From: a virus
Taxonomy: Duplodnaviria; Caudoviricetes
Length of the DNA: 64,000 nt
Virus record (IMG/VR): IMGVR_UViG_2862281513_000001
Coordinates: 32,001-96,000 of that record
Strand: one strand, 5' to 3'
Part shown: positions 24,177-45,480 of the stretch, piece by piece
Position numbering within the stretch: position 1 is the stretch's first letter
Layout of the letters: each line of letters opens with the position of its first letter
Translations under genes and position numbers: made by a program
The notes under the pieces: model-generated
Told to the model about the DNA's origin: nothing
Database searches by the model: none
What the model saw: only the letters and a program-made list of their open reading frames with translations

Positions 24177-24251
24177 TTGACCAAGAGCTTCGGGATAACC
24201 TCGGTTTACCGATTGATTTGGTCAAGGGATCGGCAAGTATGCCCAGGTCAG
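24177..24251 (-). repeat. Array repeat copy 2
   Basis: Core 24177-24225 plus distal CAGGTCAG. Confidence 0.9.
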
Positions 24252-24298
24252 GGCCTTGCCGGGGGCCGCCCGCCCGAGGGCAGGCGGCCCGCCGTCCG

Positions 24299-24613
24299 CT
24301 AGATGAAGCGGGCCAGCTCGCGGGCCCCGCGGGTGATGATGTTGTCCTCGCCGCCCCGGAGCAGGGCGCGGGTGGCGGCCATCAGGTCGCGGCGGGCCTG
24401 CTCGCGGTGCGCGATGGCCTCCCGACGGATCTTCTCGCCGGCCGCGATCAGCCGCTCGGCGTCCAGCTGGCCCTTGGTGACGCTGCGGCGGATCTCGCAC
24501 GCCCAGGCGACCTGCTCGCTGCGGATCAGGCGCTTGACGAGGTCGAGCGCATCGTCCGCGTCGCCCGCGCCCGCGATCAGCTCGGTCTCTTCGAGGAGGG
24601 TAGCGAGGTCCAT
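24299..24613 (-). CDS. Hypothetical protein
   Basis: GGGAG RBS, directly after a repeat. Confidence 0.75.
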   Translation of the reverse strand: MDLATLLEETELIAGAGDADDALDLVKRLIRSEQVAWACEIRRSVTKGQLDAERLIAAGEKIRREAIAHREQARRDLMAATRALLRGGEDNIITRGARELARFI

Positions 24614-24655
24614 CGTGCACTCCCTGGTGGGTGGTGGTGTGTCCTGCATTCATCC

Positions 24656-24730
24656 TTCCGCCAACCCTCCGGGCCAACCTCGTTATCCCGGGAAGTTTGG
24701 TCAAGGAATCGTCAGGAAACCGCAGGTCAG
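24656..24730 (-). repeat. Array repeat copy 3 (contains upstream stop at 24727)
   Basis: Core 24656-24704 plus CGCAGGTCAG. Confidence 0.9.
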
Positions 24731-25389
24731 AGGCCGAACAACCCGTCCTGTACCGGCTCGGCGACCGGCGCCGTGGCGGGCTTGCCGTGGACCAGGTGCT
24801 CGGCGACCGTCCATCCGGTCCACGCGGGCGGCGTCTCGCCTCGCCGGCTGCTGTTGCCGGTGAGGACGAGCAGGTCGGCGCGGGCGAGGTGGACCGTGCC
24901 GTCGAGGATCAGCCACACCTCGCAGCGGGGCAGGCCGAGCGCGGTGATCATGGCCAGGTGGTGGATGTCGCCCCATCCGGCGTGCAGTGCACCAGGAGCG
25001 ACCCAGACCCACGTGCCGAGGTTCACGTCGCCCGGTCCGGCCGGGGTGTGCCGGTAGGGCGGGCGCTGCCGTACAGGCCGCGGTGGCTTCGGCGGGTAGA
25101 AGTGGCTCGGCGGGTAGTGCGGCTGGCGGGCCTCTTTGAGTTCGGCGGCCTGCCACCGGGTGACGTCGGCCGGGGTGTAGCAGAGGGGGCCGACGTGCCA
25201 CTTGCGGGGCGTCGTCTTGTCCCGCCAGACGGCCGCGCCGCAGGTGCAGCGGCTTTCCGACAGGTGCTCTCGTGCGGGTCCGCAGGGCCAGGCGGTGTTG
25301 CACGGGCGGCAGGCCGGCTGGCCGCTGTCCAGGCCGTGCGGGAGGTGGTGGTCGGGCAGGCGGATCGGCCGGATCGTCCAGGGCCTCAC
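24727..25389 (-). CDS. Hypothetical Cys/His-rich protein
   Basis: GTG start after AAGGA; CRPC..WPC, CTCG; ends QDGLFGL. Confidence 0.65.
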   Translation of the reverse strand: MRPWTIRPIRLPDHHLPHGLDSGQPACRPCNTAWPCGPAREHLSESRCTCGAAVWRDKTTPRKWHVGPLCYTPADVTRWQAAELKEARQPHYPPSHFYPPKPPRPVRQRPPYRHTPAGPGDVNLGTWVWVAPGALHAGWGDIHHLAMITALGLPRCEVWLILDGTVHLARADLLVLTGNSSRRGETPPAWTGWTVAEHLVHGKPATAPVAEPVQDGLFGL

Positions 25390-25469
25390 TGGGGCGTCCT
25401 TTCCGGGTGCGGTGGGTGGAGGATGGGCGCGGGCCGGGGAGCGCTCCCTGCTCCCCGGCCCGCCGGCTG

Positions 25470-26168
25470 CTACTGGCTCAGGACGTGGACGGCCTTGCCC
25501 GGACGGCGGGGCGAGTAGCACAGGTACTCGCCCCATTCGTCGTTCACGCCCTTGCCGGTGCGGTCCCAGACGAGCGTCCGGTCGCACTGGGCGCACGTTC
25601 CGGCGTCCTCCCCCGGCCTGCCCTGCTGCGGGAGGGTGTTGAGGAGGCGGACGGCTTCGGGCAGGCAGGTCGCGGTGTGGACGGTGGCGGTGGGGTCGAC
25701 GGGCGCCTGGTGCAGCTGCTCGGACGCGGTCGTGGCATCCGGGACGATCACGGTGGTGAGGCCGTCGGCGGCGGCGGCGTTGACGCTGGCGAGGATGCCC
25801 TCGGGGGCGCGCAGCCAGCCGGCCAGGTCGAGTTCGCCGGTTACCGCGATGCGGTCGAGGGCCCCCTCGTGGATGTGGCCGGCCGCGGCGAGGATGGCGC
25901 AGGCGATGGCGAGGTCGGACAGGGTGCCGTACGGGCGGTGGTCGTCCCGGGTGACCTGCACGTTGACGGTGCCGTCGGGCCACTCGTAGCCGCTGTTGAT
26001 GAGGGCCGCGCGGATGCGGTCGCGGGTCTCGCGCTCGTGGTCGACGCCGAGGATGACGCTGGCGTCGGGGGCGTCGGGCCAGATCCGGGCGAGGACCGTT
26101 GCGATGCCGTCGGCGGTGCCGACCCGGGCGGTCGCGCGGCGTTCGGTGGGGGTGCGGCTGTCGTTCAT
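25470..26168 (-). CDS. ComM/YifB (Mg-chelatase-like) N-terminal domain only, plus small Cys domain
   Basis: ETRDRIRAALINSGYEWP, DLAIACAILAA.G, GELDL.G; no Walker motifs. Confidence 0.8.
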   Translation of the reverse strand: MNDSRTPTERRATARVGTADGIATVLARIWPDAPDASVILGVDHERETRDRIRAALINSGYEWPDGTVNVQVTRDDHRPYGTLSDLAIACAILAAAGHIHEGALDRIAVTGELDLAGWLRAPEGILASVNAAAADGLTTVIVPDATTASEQLHQAPVDPTATVHTATCLPEAVRLLNTLPQQGRPGEDAGTCAQCDRTLVWDRTGKGVNDEWGEYLCYSPRRPGKAVHVLSQ

Positions 26169-26508: not shown

Positions 26509-26553
26509 CGGGTGCTCCCTGGTGGTTGGTGGTGTGTTGTCCTGCATTCATCC

Positions 26554-26629
26554 TTCCACCACCCTCCCGGGATAACCTCGTTATCCCGGGAAGTTTGGTC
26601 AAGGAATCGTCAGTGAAACCGCAGGTCAG
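26554..26629 (-). repeat. Array repeat copy 4 (contains upstream stop at 26626)
   Basis: TCCCGGGATAAC-CTC-GTTATCCCGGGA perfect inner palindrome. Confidence 0.92.
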
Positions 26630-27417
26630 CCCTCCTCGGCGAGCAGCTGGAGGGCGGTGACCGCGGCGGTCAGTCGGCGGGCGCCGATGACGTCGAGCTT
26701 GAGCCCCAGGGCGAGGACGTCGCGGACCTGGTCGGTGGGGACGATGACGGTGCGGTAGCCGTTGGCGTGGGCGGTTCGGGCCGCGTCGTCGATTCCGGGC
26801 AGTGCCTCGACCGCGCCGCTGTGGCTGTTCAGCTCGCCGAGGAGCACGGCCTGGTCGAGGGCGCGCGGGTCGAGCTGGCCGCTGGCCGCGAGGAGGGCGC
26901 AGGCGGCCGCGAGGTCGAGGGTGCTGGTGACGTTGCGGTGATGGTCGATGCGGACAGACACCGCACCGCCGGGGAAGGTGAAGCCGCTGCGGGTGATCGC
27001 GTCGCGGATCCGGACGTCTGCCGTGCTGTCGTACTGGTTCCAGCCGGCGATCCGGAAGCTGTCCGCGCCGGGCCAGACCGTGGCCTCGACGAGCACCATG
27101 CCGGCCTTGGCGGCGCCGCTGGCGTGGGCGGCGGTGACGGCGAGGTTGCTGGTGTTGCTGTTCGGGGCGAGCGCGTACTCGGGGTTGCCGGATGCCTGCC
27201 GCAGGCCCTCGAGGAAGCTGTCGAGCGCCTCGGCCGCGGTGGCGCCCTTGATGATGTTGACCTCGCCGAGGGCGTCGGCCGCCTCGACGTCCAGCTCCTC
27301 GACGACGACCTGCCTGCGGGTGAGGTCGACGGGGGCGGGCGCGATGTCCCACAGGGTGTAGCTGGCTGCGTCGACGCGGCCGACGATGATGAACTCGGGG
27401 GTCCGGGTGGCGGTCAT
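26626..27417 (-). CDS. Second ComM/YifB N-terminal-domain protein with N-terminal extension
   Basis: RIRDAITRSGFTFP, LDLAAACALLAASGQ, LGEL; no AAA+ domain. Confidence 0.8.
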   Translation of the reverse strand: MTATRTPEFIIVGRVDAASYTLWDIAPAPVDLTRRQVVVEELDVEAADALGEVNIIKGATAAEALDSFLEGLRQASGNPEYALAPNSNTSNLAVTAAHASGAAKAGMVLVEATVWPGADSFRIAGWNQYDSTADVRIRDAITRSGFTFPGGAVSVRIDHHRNVTSTLDLAAACALLAASGQLDPRALDQAVLLGELNSHSGAVEALPGIDDAARTAHANGYRTVIVPTDQVRDVLALGLKLDVIGARRLTAAVTALQLLAEEG

Positions 27418-27480: not shown

Positions 27481-27753
27481 TCAGGACTTGCGGCGGTTGA
27501 TCTGGTGGAGGGTGACGCCCTCGGCGGCCAGGGCCCGGCAGATGTTGCCGCGCACCCACCCGCCCCAGCCGTCCGACTCGTACTCGGCGAGGAACTGTCG
27601 CCGCTTGGGGTTGGCCGTGTTCGGGCTGAACGTGGCCGCCAGCTCGTAGGCCAGGACTCGGGTGCTCCACGGGCCTTCGAACAGCTCGTCGGAGATCGCG
27701 TTGTCCTCCAGGTCCCAGTACCGGTGGAGGAGGGGGGTCTGGGTCTGGTCCAT
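27481..27753 (-). CDS. Hypothetical protein
   Basis: GGAG RBS, directly after a repeat. Confidence 0.7.
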   Translation of the reverse strand: MDQTQTPLLHRYWDLEDNAISDELFEGPWSTRVLAYELAATFSPNTANPKRRQFLAEYESDGWGGWVRGNICRALAAEGVTLHQINRRKS

Positions 27754-27801
27754 GGCTGGCGCTCCGTCCCTGGTGGGTGGTGGTGTGTCGTGCATTCATC
27801 A

Positions 27802-27877
27802 TTGGCCAAACCCACCCGGTTAACCTCCCTAGCCGGGCGGATTTGGTCAAGAGATCGACAAGAAAACCGCTGGTCAG
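27802..27877 (-). repeat. Array repeat copy 5 (contains upstream stop at 27874)
   Basis: Core 27802-27850. Confidence 0.9.
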
Positions 27878-29673
27878 GCGGCCAGGTCGTAGCGGCTGAT
27901 CTCCTCGCCGGTGATGCACTCGGCGAGCATGCAGATCAGCACCTCCGACGCGTTCGGGGTGACCGCGTTGCCCAGCTGGCGGACGCGGTCGCGCTTCGAG
28001 CCGAGCACCACGTAGTCGTCGGCGAAGGCCATCGCGCGCTGGATCTCGTGGGGCTGGAGCATCCGGAACAGGACGTCTTCGATCTTGATGTCGCCCTGGA
28101 CGAGGGCGAAGCGGTCGCGGGTGGAGAGGGCGCCGACGGGCTCGCTGACCGGGCGCGGGGTCCCGTTGCCGTAGTACGGGGCCAGGAAGGGTTCCCAGGT
28201 GACGAGGGACTGGTGGCCGGTGGTGGTGAGGGTCCGCATCGGCTCGGCCAGGTCGGTGCAGTGTTCGCCGCCGTCGCCGGTGGAGCCGTTGTTCCGCATC
28301 ATCATGCCCGGCATCGGGACGGCGGCCAGGCCGTGGTGGTTGCCGCTGGCGCAGACCGTGGCGAGCGGGTCGGTGATGGCGCGGACGTCGCTGGAGCCGC
28401 CCCGGATCTCGGTGATGAACGGCAGCCACGCGAGCCCGGCCTCGGCCCTGGCGGTCTGGGTCTGCATCGGCCCGTAGATCGTGCGGGCGTTCTTGCCTTC
28501 GCGGCCGTCGCAGGGGACGAGCAGCGGCGGTACTGCGAGCGCGTCGTTCTCGCGGGTGGTGCGGGTCGGCATCGGCTCCAGCAGGTCGGTGGCCGCGTCG
28601 CGCCAGGTGCCGCCGGTGGGCACCATCAGCGGGCGGGCGAACTTGTCCAGCCCGGCCTGGATGCGCCGCATCGTCTTCTCCGCCAGCGGCGTCTTGCGGT
28701 CGCCGATCCGACCGCCGGGGATCGACCAGTCGATGGCGGCCGCCGCGGGGATCGTCTCGGGCTCCACGATCTGGTGGCCGCACTTGGTGTTCGGGCACCG
28801 GTAGTCGTACTGGCTCTTGTACCGGCCCATGTCGACGCCGGGCTTGCGGAACACCTGTCGGGCCTTGACCATCTGGTCGCAGCCGGTGCAGAACGCCGAG
28901 GGGGCGAGCCACTTCTCGAAGTTCGGGTTCCGGCCGAGGCTGGCGTGCCAGTACACGAAGTACAGCCGGTCACGGGACTGCGGGGCGCGGTGGACGCTGC
29001 GCGGGTCGGCGTGCATCGAGTTCAGCGCGACCAGCTTGGTCCGGTAGCCCAGCTTGTGGAACTCCGCCACCCAGCGGTCCCACTCGGCCCACTGCCGGAC
29101 GTCGACCACGTTCTCGACGACGCCCGCCTTGACGAGCCCGCCGCGCTCCTGGACGCCGCGCAGGTAGAGCGGGATCTCCTCCATCAGCGCCCGGCTGGCC
29201 TGCTCCTCCTCGGTGGGGCCGCCGCTGTCGCGCTCTTCCTCGGTCTGGAACTTCTCCTCCTCCAGCTCCGCGTACAGGTCGAGGAGGTCGCCCTGGACGG
29301 CCTTCGCGAAGTCCCGCTTCTTGCCCTGGGCGATCGACCACTTGGTGCACTCGGGCGAGCCCCAGTGGATGTCGGTGATCGGCCAGGCCCAGACCGGGGC
29401 CTTGCGGATGTCGCCGATGTAGTGCGCGACGCCGGGGAAGTTCCGCTCGTGGCTCTCGATCGCGCGCTTCCAGTGGTTCGCGGCCCGGGTCACCTTGACG
29501 TTCGGGACGGCGTCCGCGCCCTGGGTGGAGCCGCCTGCGCCGCAGAACCAGTCCATGACGCTCAGTTCGGTGCCGTCGTGCCTGTACGCCTTGACTCGCC
29601 GGCGGCGGGCGTACGTCTGGGCGCCGCTGGAGGCCGAGGCCATCGCGCGGGTGGTGGAGGAGATGTAAGGCAT
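27874..29673 (-). CDS. Orphan DNA (cytosine-5) methyltransferase
   Basis: FCGAGG, GSPECT, ENV, Q.R.R, QLGNAV motifs. Confidence 0.92.
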   Translation of the reverse strand: MPYISSTTRAMASASSGAQTYARRRRVKAYRHDGTELSVMDWFCGAGGSTQGADAVPNVKVTRAANHWKRAIESHERNFPGVAHYIGDIRKAPVWAWPITDIHWGSPECTKWSIAQGKKRDFAKAVQGDLLDLYAELEEEKFQTEEERDSGGPTEEEQASRALMEEIPLYLRGVQERGGLVKAGVVENVVDVRQWAEWDRWVAEFHKLGYRTKLVALNSMHADPRSVHRAPQSRDRLYFVYWHASLGRNPNFEKWLAPSAFCTGCDQMVKARQVFRKPGVDMGRYKSQYDYRCPNTKCGHQIVEPETIPAAAAIDWSIPGGRIGDRKTPLAEKTMRRIQAGLDKFARPLMVPTGGTWRDAATDLLEPMPTRTTRENDALAVPPLLVPCDGREGKNARTIYGPMQTQTARAEAGLAWLPFITEIRGGSSDVRAITDPLATVCASGNHHGLAAVPMPGMMMRNNGSTGDGGEHCTDLAEPMRTLTTTGHQSLVTWEPFLAPYYGNGTPRPVSEPVGALSTRDRFALVQGDIKIEDVLFRMLQPHEIQRAMAFADDYVVLGSKRDRVRQLGNAVTPNASEVLICMLAECITGEEISRYDLAA

Positions 29674-29717
29674 GCGGTCCGTCCCTTCGGGTGGGGTGGT
29701 GTGTCGTGCATTCATCA

Positions 29718-29793
29718 TTGACCCCACCCCCCGGGATAATCGCGTTATCCCGGGGAGTTTGGTCAAAGAATCGTCAGGAAAGCCGCAGGTCAG
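29718..29793 (-). repeat. Array repeat copy 6 (contains upstream stop at 29790)
   Basis: Core 29718-29766. Confidence 0.92.
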
Positions 29794-30677
29794 ACGCCGT
29801 CCGGCTGGAACGGGATCTGCGGGTGCCCGTCCTTATCCAGCGCGTACCAGCACCACTCGAAGTGGCCGCCGATGCAGTAGCGGCCGTCCTCGTTCGGCCA
29901 GATCGCCCGGACCGACTTCTCTCGCCTTGTGCCGCCGAGGTACATCCAGCCGATTTCGAGCACGACGACTTCGGCACGGCTGTCGACCGTGCCGTCCAGG
30001 ACGTGGATGGTGTTCACGAAGCCGTGCCCGTAGCGGGCGGCCTCGGCCTGGGTCTCGGCCGCGATGATCCGGACGGTGGGGAGGTCGAACCACGGCCGTA
30101 CGAAGCCGTCGCGCTGGTCGGCCGGGTCGACGAGGGCCGGGTAGCGGTCGCGCTCGTTCGCGCACACCATGACCTCGACCATGGAGCTCGGGACTGCGTC
30201 CGGGGCGTCCGCGCCGGACGGGTCGAGGGTGAGGGAGGCCGCGCGCGGGAGGTCGAGCGACCAGACCGGCCGGCCGTCCCGGCCGGGCAGCTCCTCGCAC
30301 AGCGGGCTCCAGACGTCGCGCGTACTGTCGCCCAGGTACGCCGTCCAGCCGCCGAGGTCATGCAGGGCGTTCCCGGCCTCGGTCTCGCCGACGTCCTCGG
30401 TGAAGGTCCGCTCGTCACCGGCGGCCGTCCAGTAGCGGCCGGTGGGAAACAGCGAGTCCTTGCCTTCGGTCAGTTCGAGCCGTGCGGCGTCGAACGGGGC
30501 GTCGGGCTGGTGGCCGGTGAGGATGTCGCGGACGGCCGCCGCGGTGACGACGAGCATGACGCGGCCGAGCTGCTCGTGCGTGGTGCGGTTGTCGTTGAGG
30601 GCCTGGTCGACGGCCTCGGCGAGTGCCTGGCTGGCGGGCAGTTCGTAGGCGGGGCGGGTAGGGGTCTGGCGTTCCAT
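29790..30677 (-). CDS. Hypothetical protein; C-terminal domain paralogous to 31707-32765
   Basis: VDP...GFV.P.F...WMYL...DGRY.IGG..WCW shared. Confidence 0.8.
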   Translation of the reverse strand: MERQTPTRPAYELPASQALAEAVDQALNDNRTTHEQLGRVMLVVTAAAVRDILTGHQPDAPFDAARLELTEGKDSLFPTGRYWTAAGDERTFTEDVGETEAGNALHDLGGWTAYLGDSTRDVWSPLCEELPGRDGRPVWSLDLPRAASLTLDPSGADAPDAVPSSMVEVMVCANERDRYPALVDPADQRDGFVRPWFDLPTVRIIAAETQAEAARYGHGFVNTIHVLDGTVDSRAEVVVLEIGWMYLGGTRREKSVRAIWPNEDGRYCIGGHFEWCWYALDKDGHPQIPFQPDGV

Positions 30678-30718
30678 GCCGTGTCCGTTCTGTGTGGTGG
30701 GTGCTACGTCCTCGATCC

Positions 30719-30793
30719 TTGACCCCACCGGCCGGGTTAACCTCGTTATCCCGGCCGAGTTGGTCAAGGATTCGTCAGTGAGCTGCTGGTCAG
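30719..30793 (-). repeat. Array repeat copy 7 (contains upstream stop at 30790)
   Basis: Core 30719-30767. Confidence 0.9.
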
Positions 30794-31677
30794 CAGGTGA
30801 TGCCGTCGGCCAGGTACGAGCCGTCTTCGGCGACGCTCAGGGCGAACACCTCGGTCGCGGGGCCGCGCTCGACGCGGGTGGCGGGCAGCCACCGGTAGCC
30901 GTCGAAGTCGGGGCGCCGGCCGCCTTCGCTCCTCCAGCAGAGCTGCCATCCGATCTTGCCGGGCTTGCTGCTGTTGCTCAGTCCGCCGGGGAACCCGAGC
31001 GAGCAGACGAGGAGCCGCAGGCCGACCATGAACGCCTTGGAGTGCATGCGCACCTGGTTCTGCTGGCGGCGGGGGGCGTCGTTGACCAGGCCGACGAGGA
31101 ATGCGATCCGCAGCGTCTCGGGCATCGTCAGCACCCAGGCCGGGAAGCGGCGACCGGCCCCGTACTGGCCGAAGTGCTCGGCGAGCCAGTCGACCAGCTC
31201 GGGCCGGACGGCGGCCGCGGCCGCGCCCTTGAGGCGGATCATCGCCCCGGCGGCGTGGAGGACGTCCACCAGGTCCGCGTCGGCGAGCGGGGCGGGCAGG
31301 TCGGGGATGGGCAGCGGCTCCCCGAAGTGGAGTGGCGTGGCCAGCCGGTGGCGGTCGGTCAGGTCGCGGGCCCTGGTCCAGCCAGCTGCCGACAGGTCCC
31401 CGGCCGGGCCGCCGTCCAGCAGGACGGGCGCGGTCCGCGTGTGGAAGGGATGGTCGGCGGTCGTGGCGAAGCCGCTGATGTACGAGGCGCAGTGGACGCG
31501 GACGGTCTCGGTGGTCGCGGTCATCGTCTCGGTGACCGGGCGCCACCGGCGCTCGTGGGTGAACACCTCGTCCCCGGGGGTGACGGTCTCGATGGGGACG
31601 ATGCCGCGCAGGGTCAGGATCATGGTCCCGGCCGGGAAGCCTTCGGGGGCGGGTGCCGGGGGGCTCTGGTTGTCCAT
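30790..31677 (-). CDS. Free-standing Hint/intein-like protein with LAGLIDADG-like remnant, catalytic termini absent
   Basis: GFPAGTMILT..G..PIE....GDEV.TH, TTADHPF, VFALSVAED.SY.ADGI; no Cys1, no terminal HN. Confidence 0.8.
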   Translation of the reverse strand: MDNQSPPAPAPEGFPAGTMILTLRGIVPIETVTPGDEVFTHERRWRPVTETMTATTETVRVHCASYISGFATTADHPFHTRTAPVLLDGGPAGDLSAAGWTRARDLTDRHRLATPLHFGEPLPIPDLPAPLADADLVDVLHAAGAMIRLKGAAAAAVRPELVDWLAEHFGQYGAGRRFPAWVLTMPETLRIAFLVGLVNDAPRRQQNQVRMHSKAFMVGLRLLVCSLGFPGGLSNSSKPGKIGWQLCWRSEGGRRPDFDGYRWLPATRVERGPATEVFALSVAEDGSYLADGITC

Positions 31678-31706
31678 GTGAGGTCCCTTCTCGTGGGGCG
31701 GTGGGG

Positions 31707-32765
31707 TCAGTGGGCGTCGTGGCCGGTGAACCGGAGCCAGTGGGGGCCGCTGTCGGTCAGGCTGTCGCCGAGGATGGCGCGCAGGGCGGCGTCGGCCTCG
31801 CCGAGCGTCTCGGTGTCGAACGGGCCGCCGTCGCCGAGGTTCAGCTCGGTCTCGCCGGCCACCGCGCCGACGATGCGGGGAGCGCCGTCGGCCTCGAAGA
31901 GGACCGCGGTCGCCTCGGGGGCGAGGCGGTGCAGGATCTCGCCGACGCGGGGCGCGGCCTCCTTGAGCGCGGCGGCCTGCTCGCGGGTCATACCGCAGCC
32001 CTCGCACTGGGGGACGTGCCAGTCGTGGCCCTCGCTGCACAGGCACCACCAGCTGGCGTAGCTCCAGCACCATTCCCAGCCGCCGATGCTGTACCGGCCG
32101 TCGTCGTCGGGCTCGATGATGTGGGTGACCTGCCGTGCGCCCTCGTCTTCCAGGTACATCCACGAGATCTTGAGGACGACGGCCAGCGGCTTGTCGCCGC
32201 GGCCCTTGGCGCCGATGTCGATGACGTGCACGGTGTCCATGCCGTCGGCGCCGTACTCTTCGGCGCACCGCTGGGTCTGGTCGGCCAGCTCGCGGGCGGC
32301 GTCCAGGGTGAAGCGGGGCGAGACGAAGCCGTTCCACAGGTTGTGCGGGTCGACCTTGGCGTCCAGCGGGCCGAGCATGTCGTCGATGCAGACCTTCGTG
32401 TCCACGGTGCGGAGGTCGGAGGCGACCCGGTAGAACTCGGCCTGGCTGTGCTCGCCCTCCCAGCTGTCGCCGTCGAAGTCGAGTTCGTCGGCCAGCGTCT
32501 GGCAGAGCCGCCGGTACAGCGCCTTGCGGTACGGGAGGCTGCCGTCCTCGCGGGCGTCCTGCCATGCCTTCACCCAGGCTTGCCGGTCGAAGCGGGCGTT
32601 GGGCTGCATGCCCGCGGCCGCCTGGAGGCAGACCCTGCGGTCGACGTGGACGGTGCCGTTGACGTCGCCGGTGTCGCGCCTGGCGCGGGCCTGGACGATC
32701 TGCTGGATGAGGGCGAGGGCGCCGGCGAGTTCGAGCTGGCCGACTTCCGGGGTCGTGCTGGTCAT
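31707..32765 (-). CDS. Hypothetical multidomain protein
   Basis: GAGG RBS; central domain shared with 29790-30677. Confidence 0.8.
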   Translation of the reverse strand: MTSTTPEVGQLELAGALALIQQIVQARARRDTGDVNGTVHVDRRVCLQAAAGMQPNARFDRQAWVKAWQDAREDGSLPYRKALYRRLCQTLADELDFDGDSWEGEHSQAEFYRVASDLRTVDTKVCIDDMLGPLDAKVDPHNLWNGFVSPRFTLDAARELADQTQRCAEEYGADGMDTVHVIDIGAKGRGDKPLAVVLKISWMYLEDEGARQVTHIIEPDDDGRYSIGGWEWCWSYASWWCLCSEGHDWHVPQCEGCGMTREQAAALKEAAPRVGEILHRLAPEATAVLFEADGAPRIVGAVAGETELNLGDGGPFDTETLGEADAALRAILGDSLTDSGPHWLRFTGHDAH

Positions 32766-33142: not shown

Positions 33143-33184
33143 GTCGGGCTCCCTGGGTGGTGGTGGGTGGTGACACCTTCTTCA

Positions 33185-33260
33185 TTGACCCCACCGCCCG
33201 GGATAACCTCCGTATCCCGGTAGATTTGGCCAAGGAATCGGCAAGGAAACGGCTGGTCAG
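33185..33260 (-). repeat. Array repeat copy 8 (contains upstream stop at 33257)
   Basis: Core 33185-33233. Confidence 0.9.
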
Positions 33261-34084
33261 GCCATGGCGAACAGGTCGAGCTGGAGCGGCTGGCGCTGGT
33301 GCCATCCGTGGGTGGGGAGGCTGCCGTCGGGGTCGGCCTCCAGCACCAGGAGGACGGTGCGGACGTTCGTGCCGGACGGGGCGAAGGCGTCTTCGGGGAG
33401 CTTGACGATCTCGCCCTCGTTGTCGGCGATCAGCTTGCGGAACTCGACCGCGGCCCGGTCCGAGTGCCAGGCGATCGACTCGGGCATGACGGCCACGAGG
33501 GTGCCGCCGTCCTTCATGAACGCGAGCGCGTGCATGACGTGGGCGATGGCGTTGCTGAACGGCGGGTTCATCAGGACGCGGTCGTACGGCTCGTCGAGGG
33601 CGAGCGGGTCGAGGTCGAGGAAGTCACCCTGAACGACCTGGCGGGCGATGCCGAGGTCTCGGAGGACGTGGGCTCGGCGGGGGTCGATCTCGACGCAGTC
33701 CACGATGCCCATCTCCTCGGCGGCCCGCTTGGCGAGCGAGCCGGTTCCGGCCGACGGTTCCAGCACGGTGTGGCCGACCCGGATCGAGGCGTGCTCCAGC
33801 ATGTCGAACACGACCTTCGGCGGGGTCGGATACCAGCCCTGTTCGAACCGGCTGGGCCACTCGCCGGCCGCGAGGCAGTCGCGCATGAACTGCTCCACCG
33901 GGAAGGGGAAGACGTGGGCACGGACGGCCTTCCTGCCGTCCCACCGGCCGCCAATGTCCTTCAGCATCTGGTTCATCCGCTGGTACAGCGCGGGCTCCAG
34001 CTCGAAGGGGACGGCTACGCGGTCGCCGCTGATGATCGTGCGGTCGTCGGTGAGGACGGCGAGGACGTCGGCCGGGATCTGCAT
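33257..34084 (-). CDS. Orphan N6-adenine-type DNA methyltransferase
   Basis: WYPTP, VLEPSAGTG, NPPF, F..SGT.V; ends QLDLFAMA. Confidence 0.9.
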   Translation of the reverse strand: MQIPADVLAVLTDDRTIISGDRVAVPFELEPALYQRMNQMLKDIGGRWDGRKAVRAHVFPFPVEQFMRDCLAAGEWPSRFEQGWYPTPPKVVFDMLEHASIRVGHTVLEPSAGTGSLAKRAAEEMGIVDCVEIDPRRAHVLRDLGIARQVVQGDFLDLDPLALDEPYDRVLMNPPFSNAIAHVMHALAFMKDGGTLVAVMPESIAWHSDRAAVEFRKLIADNEGEIVKLPEDAFAPSGTNVRTVLLVLEADPDGSLPTHGWHQRQPLQLDLFAMA

Positions 34085-34435: not shown

Positions 34436-34478
34436 GACCCCTCCTGGAGGGTGGTGGTGGGTGGTGACACCTTCTTCA

Positions 34479-35142: not shown

Positions 35143-35187
35143 TGCGTGCCTTTCGGGGTGGGTGGTGAGGTGGTGACACCTTCATCA

Positions 35188-35775: not shown

Positions 35776-35818
35776 TGCCGTCCCTTTCGGTGGGGTGTGG
35801 TGTGTTACATCCTCTTCA

Positions 35819-35880
35819 TTGAGCCAAAGCCCCTGGGGTAATCACCGGAGCCCGAGAAGTTTGGTCGAGAAATCGTCAGG
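35819..35880 (-). repeat. Array repeat copy 11 (diverged)
   Basis: TTCATTGAGC...TTTGGTCGA, 50-bp core. Confidence 0.8.
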
Positions 35881-35907
35881 GGGCCGCGTGCGGGCCCCCG
35901 GGACCCG

Positions 35908-38081: not shown

Positions 38082-38125
38082 GTCGGGCTCCCTGGGGTTT
38101 GTAGTGGTTGGTGACACCTTCATCA

Positions 38126-38202
38126 TTGACCAAATACCTCGGGGGTACCCTCCCTAGCCTGATTAATTTGGTCAAGAAGTAGTCAGGGAAGCCGCTGGTC
38201 AG
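38126..38202 (-). repeat. Array repeat copy 12
   Basis: Core 38126-38175. Confidence 0.88.
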
Positions 38203-38245
38203 AGGCGGTGGCCCGGCCGGAGCCGGGCCCGTGGCCGTCGGTCGG

Positions 38246-38938
38246 TCAGGCGGGCAGGTGCGCCCGGCCGGCCTCGGTCAGCTCGATCGGCTGGCCCTGG
38301 AACAGGGACTTCGAGCTGTCCAGCGTGACCCAGCGCTCCCGGAGCAGCACCTCGAAGGTGTCGGCATAGATGGTGCCGTTTTCACTGCCGATGCGCTCCC
38401 GGTTGCGCAGGCCGAACTGCGTGCGCTTCACGCCACCCTGGGCGATCAGCTCCAGGCCCTTGCGCTGGGCCGGGGTGGGGCGGCGGGCCGGAACCGGCTT
38501 GGCGGGCTCGGACTTGGACTCGGGCTCGGGCGTCGGCTCGGGCGCCGGCTCGTTGGCGGCCCGCTCGGCGGCCTCCAGGGCGCTGACGATGCAGTCGGTG
38601 TCCTGGAGGAACCGGCGGATACCGTCCCACTTGAGCCGGTCCTGCTCGTTGGAGATCGTGCAGCTGGAGCTGCTGGAGGTGGTGCCGACGAGCTGCTTCG
38701 TCAGCCTCTTGCGGAGCTTGAGGAACACCTCGATCGGGTCGTCGTCGCCCTGCTCTTCCAGCAGGAGCCGCCAGGGCATGGCGTCCGCCGTCTTCTCCAT
38801 CGCCTTGCGCATGCTGTAGGGGGTGAGGCTCCGGGTCATGTCGCGCGACTCGGTGGCCAGCGCCTCGCGGGCCTTGCCCTCGTCCTCGATCCGGGTGCCG
38901 CCGAGGTTGGTGAGGATTTCGATGATCCGGTCCTTCAT
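38246..38938 (-). CDS. Hypothetical protein with C-terminal wHTH-like domain
   Basis: GGAGG RBS; domain paralogous to 36952-37422. Confidence 0.75.
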   Translation of the reverse strand: MKDRIIEILTNLGGTRIEDEGKAREALATESRDMTRSLTPYSMRKAMEKTADAMPWRLLLEEQGDDDPIEVFLKLRKRLTKQLVGTTSSSSSCTISNEQDRLKWDGIRRFLQDTDCIVSALEAAERAANEPAPEPTPEPESKSEPAKPVPARRPTPAQRKGLELIAQGGVKRTQFGLRNRERIGSENGTIYADTFEVLLRERWVTLDSSKSLFQGQPIELTEAGRAHLPA

Positions 38939-38983
38939 GGTGCCCTCCGTGGTGGTTGGTGGTGATTGGTGACACCTTCATCA

Positions 38984-39060
38984 TTGACCAAGGGCTTCGG
39001 GAGTACCCTCTCTAGACCGATTAATTTGGTCAAGGAATCGTCAGGGAAACCGCAGGTCAG
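38984..39060 (-). repeat. Array repeat copy 13 (contains upstream stop at 39057)
   Basis: Core 38984-39033. Confidence 0.9.
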
Positions 39061-41822
39061 GCGACTGCGAACAGGTCGAGCTGCTCGGGCGTCTGGCCGT
39101 CGGCCTCCAGCGGGGACAGCTCGGGCATCGGCTTCTGCTTGAGGTCCGGCAGGACCGGCTTCGGCTGGGGATTGACCGCGTCCTCGCGCAGCTCGGCGAC
39201 CACCGCGGCGTCCAGGCCGTGCGTCTCGATCTCCTCCTCGGTCGGCACCCAGCCGGCCGGCCGCCGCTGGAGCCGGAACACGATGCCCTGCACCTTCGCC
39301 CAGGCCGCCCAGAGCCGGTCTTCCCGGTCCTCCCATTCCATCAGCCGCTTGTGGGCCTCCCGGAACTCCGCGCTGGCCGCCTTCCGTGCGGCCTCGTCCT
39401 GCGCGGCCTGCTCGGCGAGCCTGCGGGCCTGGACGCCGTGGAGGAGGGGGCGCAGCCGCTCGCATTCCTGCTCGCGGTTCTTCTCCACCGGGGTCGGCTT
39501 CCAGCGCTTCCACACCGCCACCGCCCGGCGTCCGTCGACGGTGACCAGGACGGGCCGCTCACGGTTGGCGTCGGCCGCGCCGACGGTGACGAATCCGGCC
39601 TTCTGCAGGGCGCTCAGCCGGTGGACCGACATCAGGCGCCCGGCGGTGCCGGGGGTGTCCCGGCAGTACAGCGAGCCGAACTGGTGGAGGTAGAGGCGTC
39701 CGGCCGCCGCGGCGATGACGAACTCGGCCTGCCCGGTCGACCATCCGAGTGCGGCGGCCTGCTCGCGCTGGAGGCGCAGCTCCTTCGGGTCCTCGGCGGG
39801 CGGGGCGGTCTCGTCGACCGGCTGCTCGGGCTCGGCCGTCGCGGGCTCGTCGGCGGGTTCCTCGTGGGCCGGCTCAGGCTCGTCGACCGGCTGCTCGGGC
39901 TCCGCCTCCGGCGTCTCCTCTGCGGGCGGCTCGGCGGCCGCCGGGGGCTCCTCGGCCGGGGGCTCGATCAGCGTGGCCTGGTCGGGCCCGGCCGCCTCGG
40001 GCTCTGCCGCGGGGGGTTCGGTGGGCTCGATGCCGTGGACGATGCCGCGGCCCGGGGAGCCGCTCCACCGGCCCTCGCGGTACTGGAAGCCGTCGGCCGC
40101 CAGGCGCCGGGTGACTGCCTCCAGCAGCGACCGGGACCACACCGACTCGGTGAACTTCGTGCCCTCGGGCGCCGTGATGGTGACCGGCTCGTGCAGCTTG
40201 TGCGGCTGGCCCTTGCCGTCGAGGTACGTCAGCGTCGCCTCGGTGGCGTCCCACCCGCAGTCGACCTTGACCTTCTTCGGGACCTTCGGATCGCTGCGCT
40301 TCTTCGTCTTCGGCTTTGCGGCGAGCGCGGCGCGGACCTCGCTCGCCGGCTGCGCCAGGTGGGCCTTCCATGCCGACTTCGTGCCGGGCACCGTGCCGTC
40401 GGCGAGGAAGGCGAGCATCGCCGCCTCGGGGCAGCGGGCCCGGATCTTCGTGTAGTCCATGCCGAAGGTCCAGGTGCTGCCGCCCTCGGTGGCGTCCTCC
40501 AGCGTCATGACCCGCTTGGTGAGCCGCAGGTTCCAGGCGATCGACAGCGTCTTGGGGTTGGCCCGCTTGATCTGGTACCAGGTGCCGCTGTAGAGCGCGA
40601 AGTCGCCGGGGGCGAAGTCGTCGGGCTCCCACAGCTTCACGCCATCCTGGCGGGCCTCCTCGACCACTTCCTCCCACCCCGCGATTTCCTCGCGGAGGTC
40701 CTCGATCCGGCGCTCGGCCCGGTCTGCGGTCCGGCCCGCGGCCAGCTGCTCGTCGCGGTAGCGCTCCAGCTTGCGCAGCTCCGTGTTCAGCTTCTCCAGC
40801 CGCCGACGGGTGCGGTTGGGGTCGTAGCGGCGGGCCTTGTACTGCGCGGCGGTCTCCGCGCGGTCGCTGTGGTGCTGGGCCCTTTCCTGCTCCGCGATCG
40901 AGGCCCGCATGTTGTTGTCGCTGCGCTCGATGGCGCGGCGGTGGCGGCGCTCGCTGTGGTGGCCGACGAGGATCGGCTGGCCGGGCTCGATGCCGTCCAG
41001 CGCTCCGAGGGCCGCCTTGTGGCGGGCGTTGGAGCGGGCGGCCGCGCTGCTGGCGTAGTCGCTGTGCCGCTCGGCCCGGTTCTCGGCCCGTTCCAGCCGC
41101 TCGGCCTCGGCCTCTTTGAAGCTGCGCCGCTTGCTCTCGTCGATCTCGACGGTCACCTCCCACCCGGCCTCGCGCAGAGCCGCGACCGCACGCCGGATGC
41201 GCCAGTGGTCGGCCTCTCGGTCGCGGGAGTTGCGGATGTAGAGCGCGCCGAGGTTGCGGGAGGAGCGGAAGCCGATCGGGCGGACGATCTCGTACACGCC
41301 GTCGTGCTTCCTGGAGCCCTCCAGGAGCGTGCCGTCCGCGCGGGTGTGGGTGATGGTGAGCGAGCCCTTGGAGGGCCGGGGCTCCTCGGCCGGGGGCTCC
41401 TCGGCCTCTTCCGGCTGAGCCGGTTCCTCGAGGGCCGCCGTCTCGCTGGCCGGCTCCGGCTCGGGCTCCGGCTCGGGCGCGGGCTCGGCGGCGGGCGGGG
41501 CAGGCGGTTCCTCGCGGATCTTCTCGACGGCCCCGTTGCTGATCGTGCAGTGCGGGCGGCCCTTGTCGCTGTAGCGGACGCACACGGTGAAGGACCAGCC
41601 GCCGTCTTCCTCGGTCCAGCGCTCGATGTCGTCGGCGTGGGCTGCGGCCGTCTCGTCCGCGTGCGCGGTGAGGAGGAGCGCGTACGTGCGGACGCGCTCA
41701 CCGGCCTTGTTGTAGTCGCCGTCCACGCGGAAGTCCTTGCCCTGGCCCTGGGTGAGGCCGAGGCGCCGCAGGGCGCGGGCGAGGGCGATGCTGGGGCTCT
41801 TGGCGGGTGGGGTGGTGGCCAT
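39057..41822 (-). CDS. Large multidomain DUF3560-like protein
   Basis: GQPILVGHHSERRHRR; Pro/Glu linkers; ends EQLDLFAVA. Confidence 0.88.
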   Translation of the reverse strand: MATTPPAKSPSIALARALRRLGLTQGQGKDFRVDGDYNKAGERVRTYALLLTAHADETAAAHADDIERWTEEDGGWSFTVCVRYSDKGRPHCTISNGAVEKIREEPPAPPAAEPAPEPEPEPEPASETAALEEPAQPEEAEEPPAEEPRPSKGSLTITHTRADGTLLEGSRKHDGVYEIVRPIGFRSSRNLGALYIRNSRDREADHWRIRRAVAALREAGWEVTVEIDESKRRSFKEAEAERLERAENRAERHSDYASSAAARSNARHKAALGALDGIEPGQPILVGHHSERRHRRAIERSDNNMRASIAEQERAQHHSDRAETAAQYKARRYDPNRTRRRLEKLNTELRKLERYRDEQLAAGRTADRAERRIEDLREEIAGWEEVVEEARQDGVKLWEPDDFAPGDFALYSGTWYQIKRANPKTLSIAWNLRLTKRVMTLEDATEGGSTWTFGMDYTKIRARCPEAAMLAFLADGTVPGTKSAWKAHLAQPASEVRAALAAKPKTKKRSDPKVPKKVKVDCGWDATEATLTYLDGKGQPHKLHEPVTITAPEGTKFTESVWSRSLLEAVTRRLAADGFQYREGRWSGSPGRGIVHGIEPTEPPAAEPEAAGPDQATLIEPPAEEPPAAAEPPAEETPEAEPEQPVDEPEPAHEEPADEPATAEPEQPVDETAPPAEDPKELRLQREQAAALGWSTGQAEFVIAAAAGRLYLHQFGSLYCRDTPGTAGRLMSVHRLSALQKAGFVTVGAADANRERPVLVTVDGRRAVAVWKRWKPTPVEKNREQECERLRPLLHGVQARRLAEQAAQDEAARKAASAEFREAHKRLMEWEDREDRLWAAWAKVQGIVFRLQRRPAGWVPTEEEIETHGLDAAVVAELREDAVNPQPKPVLPDLKQKPMPELSPLEADGQTPEQLDLFAVA

Positions 41823-42145: not shown

Positions 42146-42186
42146 GTCGGGCTCCCTGGGGTTGGTGGTTGGTGACACCTTCATCA

Positions 42187-42261
42187 TTGCTCCCACCCTC
42201 CGGGATAACCTCGTTATCCCGGATTGTTTGGTCAAGAGATCGGCAAGTATGCCCAGGTCAG
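42187..42261 (-). repeat. Array repeat copy 14 (contains upstream stop at 42258)
   Basis: TCCGGGATAAC-CTC-GTTATCCCGGA. Confidence 0.92.
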
Positions 42262-42701
42262 ACGTAGTGCCGGGGGTCGCGGCCGTCACGGATGGCCGCC
42301 AGCCGTTGGAGCTGGCGGCCAATCCCCATGCCTACACCGATCAGCGGGGTCAGCGCGTGCGGCCAGACCTCCCGGCAGTGGCCGACGTAGAACCGCCCGG
42401 CGAGCACGATGACGTCCTCCGCCTGGTCGACGCCCAGCTCTCCGGCCTGCTCGCGCAGCCTGTCGACGGTCACGCCGTCCGGGTCGCCGGGGCGCGTGTC
42501 GTACGGCTGGAGGACTTGCGTGGTGCGGACGAAGCCGTGCAGGTCGCTGAGGATGAGGAGCGTGCCGCCGTCGACGATGAGCCGATCGGCCGCCGCCCGG
42601 CACGCGCGGTGATAGCTGCCGACGTACAGCTCGCCGGCCGGTGCCGGGTGGTCCAGCTTGCGGGCCGCGCAGGGGATGACGACGAGGCGGGTTGCGGTCA
42701 T
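42258..42701 (-). CDS. DUF6884-like protein
   Basis: VIPCAARK....PA.ELY.G..H...ILS..HG......PYD. Confidence 0.8.
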   Translation of the reverse strand: MTATRLVVIPCAARKLDHPAPAGELYVGSYHRACRAAADRLIVDGGTLLILSDLHGFVRTTQVLQPYDTRPGDPDGVTVDRLREQAGELGVDQAEDVIVLAGRFYVGHCREVWPHALTPLIGVGMGIGRQLQRLAAIRDGRDPRHYV

Positions 42702-43278: not shown

Positions 43279-43410
43279 GTCCGGACGGCGTCCGGATGCC
43301 GTCCGGATGCCGCGTCCGGACGGTGTCCGGACGCGGTGGGTGCTACCAGACGAGGACCGCCCCACCTGCGCGGACGACGTCCGGACGCTCGATCGGGACG
43401 TCGTCCGGAT
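43279..43410. repeat. GTCCGGA repeat cluster, ~11-bp period
   Basis: Copies at 43279, 43290, 43301, 43314, 43325 (intergenic), 43379, 43403. Confidence 0.8.
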
Positions 43411-43873: not shown

Positions 43874-43958
43874 GGCTGCCTTTCTGGATGAGGTGGGGCG
43901 TCCGGACGGTGGCCGCTGAGCTGGGCGGATACCGTCCGGACGCCGTCCGGACGGTGGG

Positions 43959-44594
43959 TCAGGAGAAGTTGGTCTGGTCGGCGTGCTCGCCGCCGCGCTT
44001 CCAGATGAGGGCGCGGACGTGGTTCGCGGGGACCTCGTAGAAGAGGCGGCCGGTGAGCGGGTCGCCGTTGAGGCGGGTCAGCTGGAGGCTCGTCTCCTCC
44101 AGCTCCCAGGCGTCGCTCGCGGGCGGCTCGATGCCCTCGGGCAGGTAGACGTCCACCTCGCCGTCGCCGGCTTCGGCCTTGATGGCGATGACCTCGCCGT
44201 CGGCCAGGCGGATGCGGAGCATCGGGCGGGGGCCGGTGCCGGTGCCTTCGAGTACGGCCTGGTCGAAGCGGTCGGTGGTGGGGTCGCTCTGGTCGGCGTG
44301 CTCGCCGCCGTGCTCCTCGATGAGCTTGCGGACGTCGGCCACCTGGACCTCGTAGAAGTAGCGGCCGTTGACCGGGTCGTCACCGGCGGTCAGCCATGCC
44401 TCCCACGCGTCTTCCAGCTCCCAGCTGTCGCCGTCGGGGGTCTGGATCTCGTCGGGCAGGTAGACGTCCACGGTGGCCGCGCAGGAGGCCGCCTTGATGC
44501 TGATGAGCTGGCCGTCGGCCAGGCGCAGGTTGTAGTGGACGCCGCCGGTGCCGTCGGCGAGGAACTGCTCGAAGTGGGAGGTGGTGGTGGCCAT
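43959..44594 (-). CDS. Acidic protein made of two tandem ~100-aa domains
   Basis: RLADG..I.IKA......VDVYLP...WELE...GR.FYEV...GGEHADQ occurs twice. Confidence 0.8.
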   Translation of the reverse strand: MATTTSHFEQFLADGTGGVHYNLRLADGQLISIKAASCAATVDVYLPDEIQTPDGDSWELEDAWEAWLTAGDDPVNGRYFYEVQVADVRKLIEEHGGEHADQSDPTTDRFDQAVLEGTGTGPRPMLRIRLADGEVIAIKAEAGDGEVDVYLPEGIEPPASDAWELEETSLQLTRLNGDPLTGRLFYEVPANHVRALIWKRGGEHADQTNFS

Positions 44595-44638
44595 GGCTGG
44601 CTCCGTTCGGTGAGTGGTGGGTGGTGACACCTTCATCA

Positions 44639-44714
44639 TTGACCCCACCACCCGGGATAACCGCGTTATCCCGGGAAGTTTGGTCAAGGATTCGGCAAGG
44701 AAACCGCTGGTCAG
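44639..44714 (-). repeat. Array repeat copy 15, best consensus (contains upstream stop at 44711)
   Basis: TTGACC-CCACCA-CCCGGGATAAC-CGC-GTTATCCCGGG-AAGTTT-GGTCAA. Confidence 0.95.
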
Positions 44715-45325
44715 ACGGTGGCGACCGCGGCGGTGAAAGCGGCGTCGAGGGACTGGACGAAGTCGGCGCCGACGGCCGCGAGGTGGGCGGCCTGGCGGGC
44801 TTCGGCCGCCTCGGCGTCCCTGGCGTGGACGGCCAGCCCGCACGAGCACCAGGTGGTGGTGCGGTCGCTGGAGTCCATCCGCTCGTGGGCGGCGGCCACC
44901 AGACTGAGGCGGGCGGCCAGGGTGAGGCGCAGGTGCTCGTTGTCGGTGTTGAGGAGGAACCCCTGGGCGAGGAGCCGCTCCGCCCGGCTCGGCGGGATCT
45001 GGCAGACGCCGGCCTCGATGACGGGCAGGGTGTACCGCTCGGAGTCGACGAGGCGGACGACGGGGACGGAGGCGATGACCCGCAGGTCGGACAGCTCGTA
45101 GTCGGTGGGGTCGGCGGGGACTTGCGGGGTGAGGGTGATGGAGCGCAGGGCCGGGGTCAGCGTGCCGGGGTCGATCCGGCGCCAGCGGATGATGGCGCCG
45201 CCGGTGCGCTGGGGCTCGATGGCGTAGCCGCGGTTGCAGGCCCGGCGCAGGAGGACCAGGGCGTGGGGCTCGCTGGCGGTGCCGGTGGTGGTGCTGCTGC
45301 CACTGTCGACGGTCTCGGTGAACAC
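44711..45325 (-). CDS. Hypothetical protein with C-terminal CSCG..H motif
   Basis: GGAGG RBS with GTG. Confidence 0.7.
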   Translation of the reverse strand: MFTETVDSGSSTTTGTASEPHALVLLRRACNRGYAIEPQRTGGAIIRWRRIDPGTLTPALRSITLTPQVPADPTDYELSDLRVIASVPVVRLVDSERYTLPVIEAGVCQIPPSRAERLLAQGFLLNTDNEHLRLTLAARLSLVAAAHERMDSSDRTTTWCSCGLAVHARDAEAAEARQAAHLAAVGADFVQSLDAAFTAAVATV

Positions 45326-45404
45326 GATGGCCTCCTGGGTGGGGGGTGGGGCCCGGCCGGGGCTGTGGCCGGGCCCTGGGTGGTGGTGTGTCGTGCATTC
45401 ATCC

Positions 45405-45480
45405 TTGACCAAGCCTGGCCGGTTAACCTCGATGTACCGGCCGGTTTGGTCAAGGGATCGACAAGGAAACCGCTGGTCAG
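45405..45480 (-). repeat. Array repeat copy 16 (contains upstream stop at 45477)
   Basis: Core 45405-45453 with GGCCGGT/ACCGGCC arms. Confidence 0.9.

Follow-up and report, generated by a model that had tools for sequence, protein, structure and literature searches.

A repeated intergenic unit of related prophages carries a nested palindrome constrained in both sequence and base pairing

The question raised by the window analysed here, a stretch of 64,000 nucleotides (positions 32,001 to 96,000 of the IMG/VR virus record IMGVR_UViG_2862281513_000001, renumbered from 1), is whether the arms of a hairpin-forming repeat that recurs between its genes are held by their sequence, by their ability to pair, or by both. 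The window contains 18 co-oriented copies of this intergenic unit of ~111–125 nt (labelled R0 to R17), plus one head unit without the hairpin. We found that the complementarity of the arms is kept beyond what sequence conservation explains, that hairpin-forming ability is maintained, and that both sequence and pairing are under constraint. Judged from its sequence, the host element is a Streptomyces prophage in whose early region the repeat array lies. Phage-like genes on the minus strand span ~1.5 to 49 kb of the window (71% G+C), and the source genome measures 9.6 Mb. Nearly every early gene of the prophage is preceded by a unit, which makes up the entire gap between two genes, and every window copy lies on the gene strand (minus). 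Repeat finding, pattern search and alignment yielded 17 copies (22.8–47.4 kb), to which the covariance model added an 18th (48734–48850). The pattern TTGACC-N30-50-GGTCAA has 10 exact matches where 0.07 are expected, and TTGACCAAA has 13 versus 0.02 expected; the unit is absent from the rest of the genome outside the array.

Read on the minus strand, the unit opens with CTGACC; in 11 units the upstream open reading frame (ORF) actually terminates at the TGA of this motif, 22–23 nt before the core. It continues with a second TGAC box (yTTGaCGAtTCy); two more TGAC boxes lie beyond the stop-codon CTGACC. Three copies, R0, R10 and R17, have a separate GC-rich hairpin in place of the CTGACC part. 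The core that follows is a nested palindrome of fixed length (49–50 nt), composed of TTGACCAAA, about six poorly paired bases, the inner arm nnCCGGGATAAC, a 3-nt loop, the inverse arm, a G-rich spacer and TTGGTCAA. Next come TGA-nGAA and one of a few alternative blocks (GGTGTCAC, TGCACGAC, GGATGTAAC), this region 3′ of the palindrome (TCAATGA...) being conserved and A/T-richer, and finally a C/A-rich leader, the Shine–Dalgarno (SD) sequence and ATG.

Five Streptomyces genomes and one IMG/VR contig showed several hits each in a scan with a loose pattern, after which a covariance model was applied. It located 4–14 copies per related locus, each set in one ~20-kb block and on a single strand, for a total of 78 full-length sense copies in seven related prophages; the related loci, labelled G1 to G5 where they have to be told apart, belong to records named Streptomyces. 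Gene order within the unit-bearing blocks is largely syntenic across the seven prophages, and on this ground cassette shuffling was rejected as the main role of the unit. Rfam 15 at gathering score left the unit unmatched, its sole hit in the window being a tRNA at 22097–22170; isolated phages and plasmids gave no DNA match to the unit or the region, and 0/150 other genomes of the genus carry it. The sequence family of these units has not been described before. Neighbouring units are more similar than distant ones (0.71 vs 0.66, p = 0.0001), which, together with the pair R11/R12, hints at recombination or duplication between units. In some 20 units of G1, G3 and G4 (L172, L173, L176, L177, L178 and L179, with GTAAC after the core), the ATG that follows the hairpin opens a mini-ORF of 3–4 codons (MKKV, MKRM or MMKV, then a stop); in the window units the stop of this mini-ORF is replaced (GTCAC) and the frame continues without a fixed end. 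A leader peptide or upstream ORF at the conserved ATGATGAA was rejected, since frame and length are not conserved and the 4-codon versions MKKV and MKRM occur only in the GTAAC variants.

The original prediction held that the arms change in pairs from copy to copy, and that selection acts on base pairing and not only on sequence. All eight of the arm pairs it quoted were found on the plus strand, in the cores of R1, R3, R5, R6, R9, R12, R13 and R15, and the loop is, as it had stated, usually of 3 nt, reading GAG or GCG (G in 57, A in 48 and G in 66 of 76 copies). Within the 17 window copies alone column covariation is modest, with 15 doubly changed cells against 7.8, a level reached in 2 of 500 shuffles. 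Across the 78 copies of the seven prophages, paired cells amount to 77.2% versus 71.7 ± 0.6, doubly changed paired cells to 121 versus 60 ± 6.5 expected and pairs changed on both sides to 15 versus 11 expected, while the covariation score is 0.195 versus 0.119, which none of 500 shuffles reached (slid controls, 0.03–0.07). Because the 78-copy alignment had been fitted to the structure, an alignment-free arm-swap test was added, in which hybrids of the 5′ inner half of one copy and the 3′ half of a second copy were folded. Throughout, cores of 50 nt were accommodated by anchoring them at both ends. Cognate halves gave −10.71 kcal/mol versus −7.8 ± 0.29 for swapped halves over all copies, −10.71 versus −8.48 ± 0.30 kcal/mol when swaps were made within genomes, and −13.7 versus −10.95 ± 0.67 kcal/mol in the window only (0/20,000 permutations in each case). 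Permutation tests correct only partly for the relatedness of copies, a concern that is reduced by the within-genome swaps and by comparing orthologous units, taken as those with the same downstream gene. Upstream of the C5 methylase gene the stems read CCCGGGATA/TATCCCGGG in the window, ATTTGGATA/TATCCAAAT in G5 and CCGCCGG/CCGGCGG in G3, and those upstream of another gene family read GGCCGGT/ACCGGCC versus CTTGGTTTA/TAAACCAAG, being different yet complementary. Every copy is able to fold; when the 17 window copies were folded as DNA, 9/17 beat all 200 shuffles, with z down to −6.3. The claim of selection on pairing stands, or at least that of arm-to-arm templating does, for copies of a single genome as well as for orthologous units. 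Long-range covariation of the C/A-rich leader with the G-rich 3′ spacer was considered separately and rejected, as the two do not figure among the top mutual-information pairs.

What the claim had overlooked is that part of the arm is also sequence-specific, namely CGGGATAAC and TTGACCAAA. Variation is almost absent from the 5′ outer arm TTGACCAAA (G3, C5, C6 and A7 in 76/76 copies), whose 3′ partner carries uncompensated variants such as GCGGAA. The inner arms hold a conserved core (C15 G16 G17 .. T20 A21 and its mirror), and CGGGATAAC is conserved in all seven prophages. Position by position, a significant excess of Watson–Crick pairs is confined to core positions 12, 13, 14 and 19, which flank the conserved half-site CGGGATAAC and include the inner-stem flanks named in the original prediction. 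The unit at the head of the array (49070–49150, minus strand), conserved in five prophages, has no gene upstream of it and no inner palindrome; TCGACCAAAC stands directly before GAGGGT, and the unit retains the downstream block along with its leader, SD and ATG (49068). Where the inner palindrome would be (49119–49138, minus strand) there are two direct copies of GGGTGGACA, in the place of which G2 has GTTGGACA/GGTGGGCC; these copies resemble the reverse complement of the DnaA-box-like TGTCCAC. Further on, a single half-site, TTTATCCCGG (CCGGGATAAA on the array strand), occupies 49202–49211 (plus strand), ~25–35 nt before the start of a divergent gene (49235–49843, plus strand). This candidate regulator gene encodes a 202-aa protein with two helical repeats, which is conserved in four other prophages (tblastn identity 61–72%). 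The 165-bp divergent region is homologous in five prophages and holds one copy of the arm core, CCGGGATAAAC; the lone half-site is conserved in the window (W), G1, G2 and G4, and G3 reads GCGGTATTCGC, matching the change in the arms of the G3 units (CGGTA-type). A half-site on its own has nothing to pair with, so that the arm core is most readily taken for a candidate protein-binding site, and its presence at the divergent gene is suggestive, by analogy, of a counterpart to a repressor-bound copy of a palindrome.

The explanation that we favour, tentatively and at a little less than an even chance, is that the units are early-gene regulatory cassettes which combine an operator palindrome, an insulating or terminating hairpin and a promoter-like TTGACC-N17-GAGGTT, like the promoter early stem-loop elements (PeSLs) and the corresponding sequences of phage phiC31. 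The inner-arm core (CGGGATAAC plus its inverse) would be a two-fold operator for a phage regulator, for which the divergent 202-aa protein is the candidate. The variable flanks would stay complementary since the palindrome must fold as a long stem-loop upon read-through from the upstream gene, and this stem-loop would terminate, attenuate or 3′-protect the upstream message, so that neighbouring cassettes are insulated. A promoter inside the unit, either TTGACC-N17-GAGGTT with its −10-like hexamer in the loop or the conserved post-hairpin block, would then restart transcription of the next gene. The head unit speaks for this arrangement, as it has no upstream gene, loses the palindrome and retains the rest. 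The lone half-site at the regulator gene also suits an operator working only in double-stranded DNA, where a dimeric regulator reads the half-sites while uncontacted positions drift and are re-symmetrised by hairpin-templated (quasi-palindrome) correction in replication, leaving covariation as a mutational by-product without structural function. Quasi-palindrome mutagenesis works by template switching, which is suited by a short arm spacer such as the 3 nt found here. The covariation is moreover strictly Watson–Crick, with G·T behaving like any mismatch and no strand bias, and is confined to few positions beside the conserved half-site, and many copies have poor stems. We consider such a pure operator unlikely, however, since complementarity spans 11–14 bp and is rebuilt with quite different sequences at orthologous sites, the same design is tied to terminator hairpins in phiC31 and PeSLs, and the hairpin-less head unit suggests that the palindrome goes with having an upstream gene.

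Returning to the proposed regulatory cassettes, a putative promoter can be sought in the core itself. TTGACC, which hardly varies, fits the Streptomyces −35 consensus, and 16–18 nt downstream of it 64/76 copies have a hexamer showing A2 and T6, mostly GAGGTT, GAGGGT or CAGGGT, formed by the loop and the first bases of the descending arm. That the unit can start transcription may be argued from the units that follow terminator-like hairpins; the promoter may instead lie in the post-hairpin block, as in phiC31, because the head unit keeps this block without the palindrome. Other sigma-70 placements (upstream or downstream of the core, or on the plus strand) were rejected on manual reading, there being no A2/T6 at the right spacing. 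Frpo-type single-stranded DNA promoters and N4-type hairpin promoters were likewise rejected, on the grounds that this is a prophage that encodes terminase and MuF, that a giant virion RNA polymerase was not seen, and that the loop of the template strand reads CTC. Integron attC sites were discarded as well, AAC/GTT being found at the loop, not at the outer ends, with no integron integrase recognised. Resemblances of the unit to DnaA boxes and to MerR-type, sigma-B-type or WhiG-type sites are presumably partial matches only, with the wrong spacing.

In which molecule the stem would act is less clear-cut. The functional form had been proposed to be a hairpin in single-stranded DNA, cruciform DNA or RNA; pairing is upheld by our data and no medium is singled out, G·T and A·C being depleted alike and the inner stem lacking strand bias. 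The sense strand, said to fold better, does so for the whole core, by 1.4 kcal/mol (p = 0.006), but not for the inner stem (p = 0.79). The G·T (G-U) appositions of the N6 spacers, which had been adduced for the sense strand, number 42 versus 46.6 under shuffling, and because the count equals the shuffle expectation they reflect base composition, not covariation. Over positions 12–19, Watson–Crick pairs are enriched (358 vs 291 ± 8) and G·T (57 vs 68), A·C (44 vs 56) and other mismatches (149 vs 192) are depleted alike. A sense RNA stem should tolerate G·U and reject A·C, and since this is not seen the data do not identify RNA; the covarying stem fits DNA-level complementarity or selection for maximal stability. 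These counts bear on the possibility that one long polycistronic early transcript is processed or stabilised at the cores, much as at the RNase III sites that separate the early genes of T7; the unit would then hold no promoter, and TTGACCAAA/TTTGGTCAA would be just the lower stem. A 20–23-bp stem of constant length, with an internal mismatch zone, that separates almost all cistrons and invariably lies on the sense strand would be in keeping with such sites, as would the slightly greater sense-strand stability of the whole core and the failure to find a canonical promoter. We nevertheless judge this possibility quite unlikely, in view of the lack of G·U preference and of a 5′ arm that is invariant opposite a 3′ arm with uncompensated variants such as GCGGAA. 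Furthermore, R0, R10 and R17 stand directly behind terminator-like GC hairpins, where genes would be unexpressed without an internal promoter, and the head unit retains the unit flanks without the hairpin.

The strand symmetry and purely Watson–Crick character of the complementarity also speak for a DNA hairpin or cruciform as the functional form, either as a supercoil-dependent promoter switch that exposes a −10-like GAG (A at −11) in the loop, or as a site for a structure-specific replication or recombination protein that exchanges cassettes. As a switch, the hairpin would act in DNA with the −10-like element (A at −11) at the apex of an extrudable cruciform clamped by CCCGGG, and covariation would record selection for extrusion. 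An A/T-rich centre clamped by CCCGGG in a 71% G+C genome, together with the 3-nt loop, favours extrusion, and the −10-like hexamer, 17 nt past TTGACC, falls on the loop. For an exchange of cassettes one may cite that neighbouring units are most alike and that R11 and R12 (83% identical) flank an ORF without family match elsewhere. Gene order is, however, largely syntenic across the seven prophages, with little shuffling, none of the products was recognised as a hairpin-specific recombinase, an integron-type integrase or a virion RNA polymerase, and many stems are too imperfect to extrude; functional cruciforms are, in general, rare in vivo. Both the wider idea of a functional DNA hairpin and its version as a promoter switch therefore strike us as distinctly improbable. 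If the cruciform were real, DNA topology or a structure-specific protein of the phage would switch eighteen early genes in concert.

Several observations also count against the regulatory cassettes that we favour. GAGGTT is not a canonical −10 element, and a strict sigma-70 consensus scan returned no promoter; in the head units TCGACCAAAC abuts GAGGKT, so no fixed −35/−10 pair exists there. Among the window hairpins 8/17 are weak (z +0.3 to −2.7), a U-tract after the stem is absent, and units behind a separate GC-rich hairpin have own stems that are only insignificantly weaker (p = 0.09–0.15). The missing G·U tolerance and the equal folding of the inner stem on both strands fit DNA at least as well as RNA. 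Lastly, the 202-aa protein has no recognised DNA-binding fold, its helix-turn-helix (HTH) hits being sub-threshold only; its predicted fold (predicted local distance difference test, pLDDT, 79) gave no match in the PDB at E ≤ 0.001.

A similar design is known from other phages. In the fetched sequence of phiC31 (L181), the early region has nine copies of a promoter-like repeat, and a palindrome, the conserved inverted repeat (CIR) CCTACTCACGTGAGTAGG, occurs genome-wide with about seven copies in early intergenic regions. It is nested in copy-specific complementary GC-rich flanks at 6079–6132, 27524–27577, 32525–32578 and 34763–34816, and the interval 27524–27630 runs from stop codon through nested hairpin and promoter repeat to SD and start. 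As in the window, we are dealing with a temperate Streptomyces phage with a unidirectional early region, which holds about 10–18 intergenic copies in either case and whose intergenic order is stop codon, palindrome with fixed core and variable complementary flanks, promoter-like block, SD and start. The sequences are unrelated, though; the family model scores at most 13 bits on phiC31, and the window units lack both the CIR CCTACTCACGTGAGTAGG and the early promoter CCGGGTTGCCGACTCCCTTAC. The CIR is an almost invariant 18-bp perfect palindrome, whereas the window core is looser, and the phiC31 promoter block follows the hairpin, whereas in the window the −35-like TTGACC is the 5′ outer arm and the loop falls on the −10-like hexamer. 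For phiC31, repressor binding to the CIR and terminator activity have reportedly been published, and tail-less terminators are, to go by a title, reported from its early region.

The PeSLs of T4-type phages extend over ~100 bp from stop codon to ATG and comprise both a promoter and a stem-loop, the latter most often between −35 and −10 or overlapping −10; their promoter and terminator activity, as well as mini-circles, were shown experimentally, recombination between units yielding indels or mini-circles, and they have been proposed to insulate cassettes and to act as recombination homology or linkers (PMC2839356). In the window the stem-loop also lies between or overlaps the −35-like and −10-like boxes, and the greater similarity of neighbouring units recalls the proposed recombination homology. 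PeSLs differ in belonging to lytic myoviruses of Proteobacteria and in having canonical sigma-70 boxes, G-run/C-run stems and no operator half-site; gene order around the window units is mostly conserved, and the promoter and terminator activity demonstrated for PeSLs is putative for the window units. The window unit is thus an analogue of a PeSL and not a member, since it comes from a Streptomyces prophage and not from the hyperplastic region of a T4-type myovirus. Among actinophages, the extended start-associated sequences (ESAS) of Cluster K mycobacteriophages, as described in the passages devoted to them, consist of paired 17-bp inverted repeats, imperfect and located ahead of start codons, whose left arm is conserved better than the right, and these passages make no mention of covariation (PMC3203893). 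As far as those passages go, start-associated sequences (SAS) and ESAS share with the window units a single orientation and a place just upstream of start codons, and differ in that the ESAS arm spacer varies (4–13 bp), in contrast to the fixed 49–50-nt core. The 13-bp SAS GGGATAGGAGCCC is absent from the window, where one 2-mismatch hit (2.65 expected) was found, not at a unit. The stoperators of mycobacteriophage L5 (Cluster A) are 13-bp asymmetric regulator sites without hairpin potential; they resemble the window units in being many regulator-site copies in short intergenic gaps of a temperate actinophage, oriented with transcription, and differ from the window palindrome in that asymmetry and lack of hairpin potential. 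By its sequence features, the window family shares the logic of phiC31 and PeSLs but not their sequences, with the −35-like outer arm, the fixed core length and the loop on the −10-like hexamer as its own traits.

These units constitute a natural data set of 78 copies, both orthologous and paralogous, that overlays a promoter-like unit with an operator-like palindrome as well as a requirement for hairpin formation. They show the cassette logic of T4-type phages and phiC31 to recur in a lineage of Streptomyces prophages not described so far. The strictly Watson–Crick, strand-symmetric covariation makes it testable whether phage hairpins act in RNA, in DNA, or arise by templated mutation. If a promoter, an operator and an insulator are indeed contained in ~125 bp, the units would provide ready-made modular expression parts for Streptomyces.

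Along the array, R0 (22835–22938, core 22867–22915) stands behind a GC-rich terminator-like hairpin and has a degenerate −35-like box, TGGGCC (covariance model 52.7 bits; DNA fold z −2.0). R1 (24145–24254, core 24177–24225) lies upstream of the ParB gene and has the flanks TCGG/CCGA, R2 (24624–24733, core 24656–24704) shows the 3′ outer arm variant GGCGGAA, and R3 (26522–26632, core 26554–26602) has a perfect 14-bp inner stem with flanks TCCCGGG/CCCGGGA (z −5.0). They are followed by R4 (27770–27880, core 27802–27850; z −3.4), by R5 (29686–29796, core 29718–29766; z −6.2), upstream of the C5 DNA methylase gene and flanked by CCCCGGG/CCCGGGG, and by R6 (30687–30796, core 30719–30767; flanks GGCCGGG/CCCGGCC, z −6.2). 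R7 (33153–33263, core 33185–33233) and R8 (34447–34557, core 34479–34527) are covariance-model hits with a DNA fold; R9 (35155–35266, core 35188–35236) has the flanks CACCGGG/CCCGGTG (z −6.3). The weakest hairpin, with z +0.3, is that of R10 (35787–35897, core 35819–35868), which lies behind a GC-rich hairpin and has the box TCGACC. In R11 (38094–38205, core 38126–38175; z −3.8) the outer stem is a perfect 10 bp and the inner stem has diverged, and R12 (38952–39063, core 38984–39033), 83% identical to it, has the flanks TCGG/CCGA. Between these two, which are among the most similar pairs of units, lies a 230-aa ORF (38246–38938) that our own clustering matched to no family of the other prophages and that may be an inserted cassette. 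R13 (42155–42264, core 42187–42235) is flanked by TCCGGG/CCCGGA (z −4.7), R14 (44607–44717, core 44639–44687; z −5.5) is the top match of the family model with 121 bits, and R15 (45373–45483, core 45405–45453; z −5.5) has the flanks GGCCGGT/ACCGGCC. R16 (47271–47391, core 47303–47352) lies beyond the range covered by the original prediction, and R17 (48734–48850), the weak 18th copy (40 bits), has the box TCGACC and is preceded by a hairpin. Many unrelated upstream ORFs share the coding end GACCTGTTCGCC..GCC before the TGA of the unit (33264–33285, 39064–39085), as do homologous places in L174, L177, L179, L180 and L131, so that the proteins end in ...DLFA(M/V/I)A. The repeat thereby reaches ~25 nt into coding sequence, and this shared C-terminal tail of early proteins resembles a sliding-clamp-binding motif.

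As for the other genes of the window, domain matches were obtained for ParB, the C5 methylase and a ChlI/ComM-like domain, and further products include a terminase, a Dam-like methylase with GNAT, an N6 methylase, an HTH_ParB protein, two DUF3560 proteins and a PP2C phosphatase; the majority of the remaining products had no match in Pfam or PHROG. A MuF-like head protein of 1399 aa (6160–10359) is fused to an ADP-ribosyltransferase domain. The ORF at 30790–32565, which has its own unit before it, gave as its sole hit a Hint domain whose score falls just short of the threshold of Pfam (27.7 vs 28.4 bits; E 3.9e-06). Just past the last early gene lies the tRNA gene (22097–22170, minus strand), with a strong terminator-like hairpin at 22290–22330, and ~900 bp without an obvious ORF extend beyond them. 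Finally, clusters of the repeat GTCCGGA/TCCGGAC at 43282–43409 and 43926–43964, spaced by ~11 nt and partly forming an inverted pair, sit within or beside ORFs and have the appearance of an iteron or centromere array.

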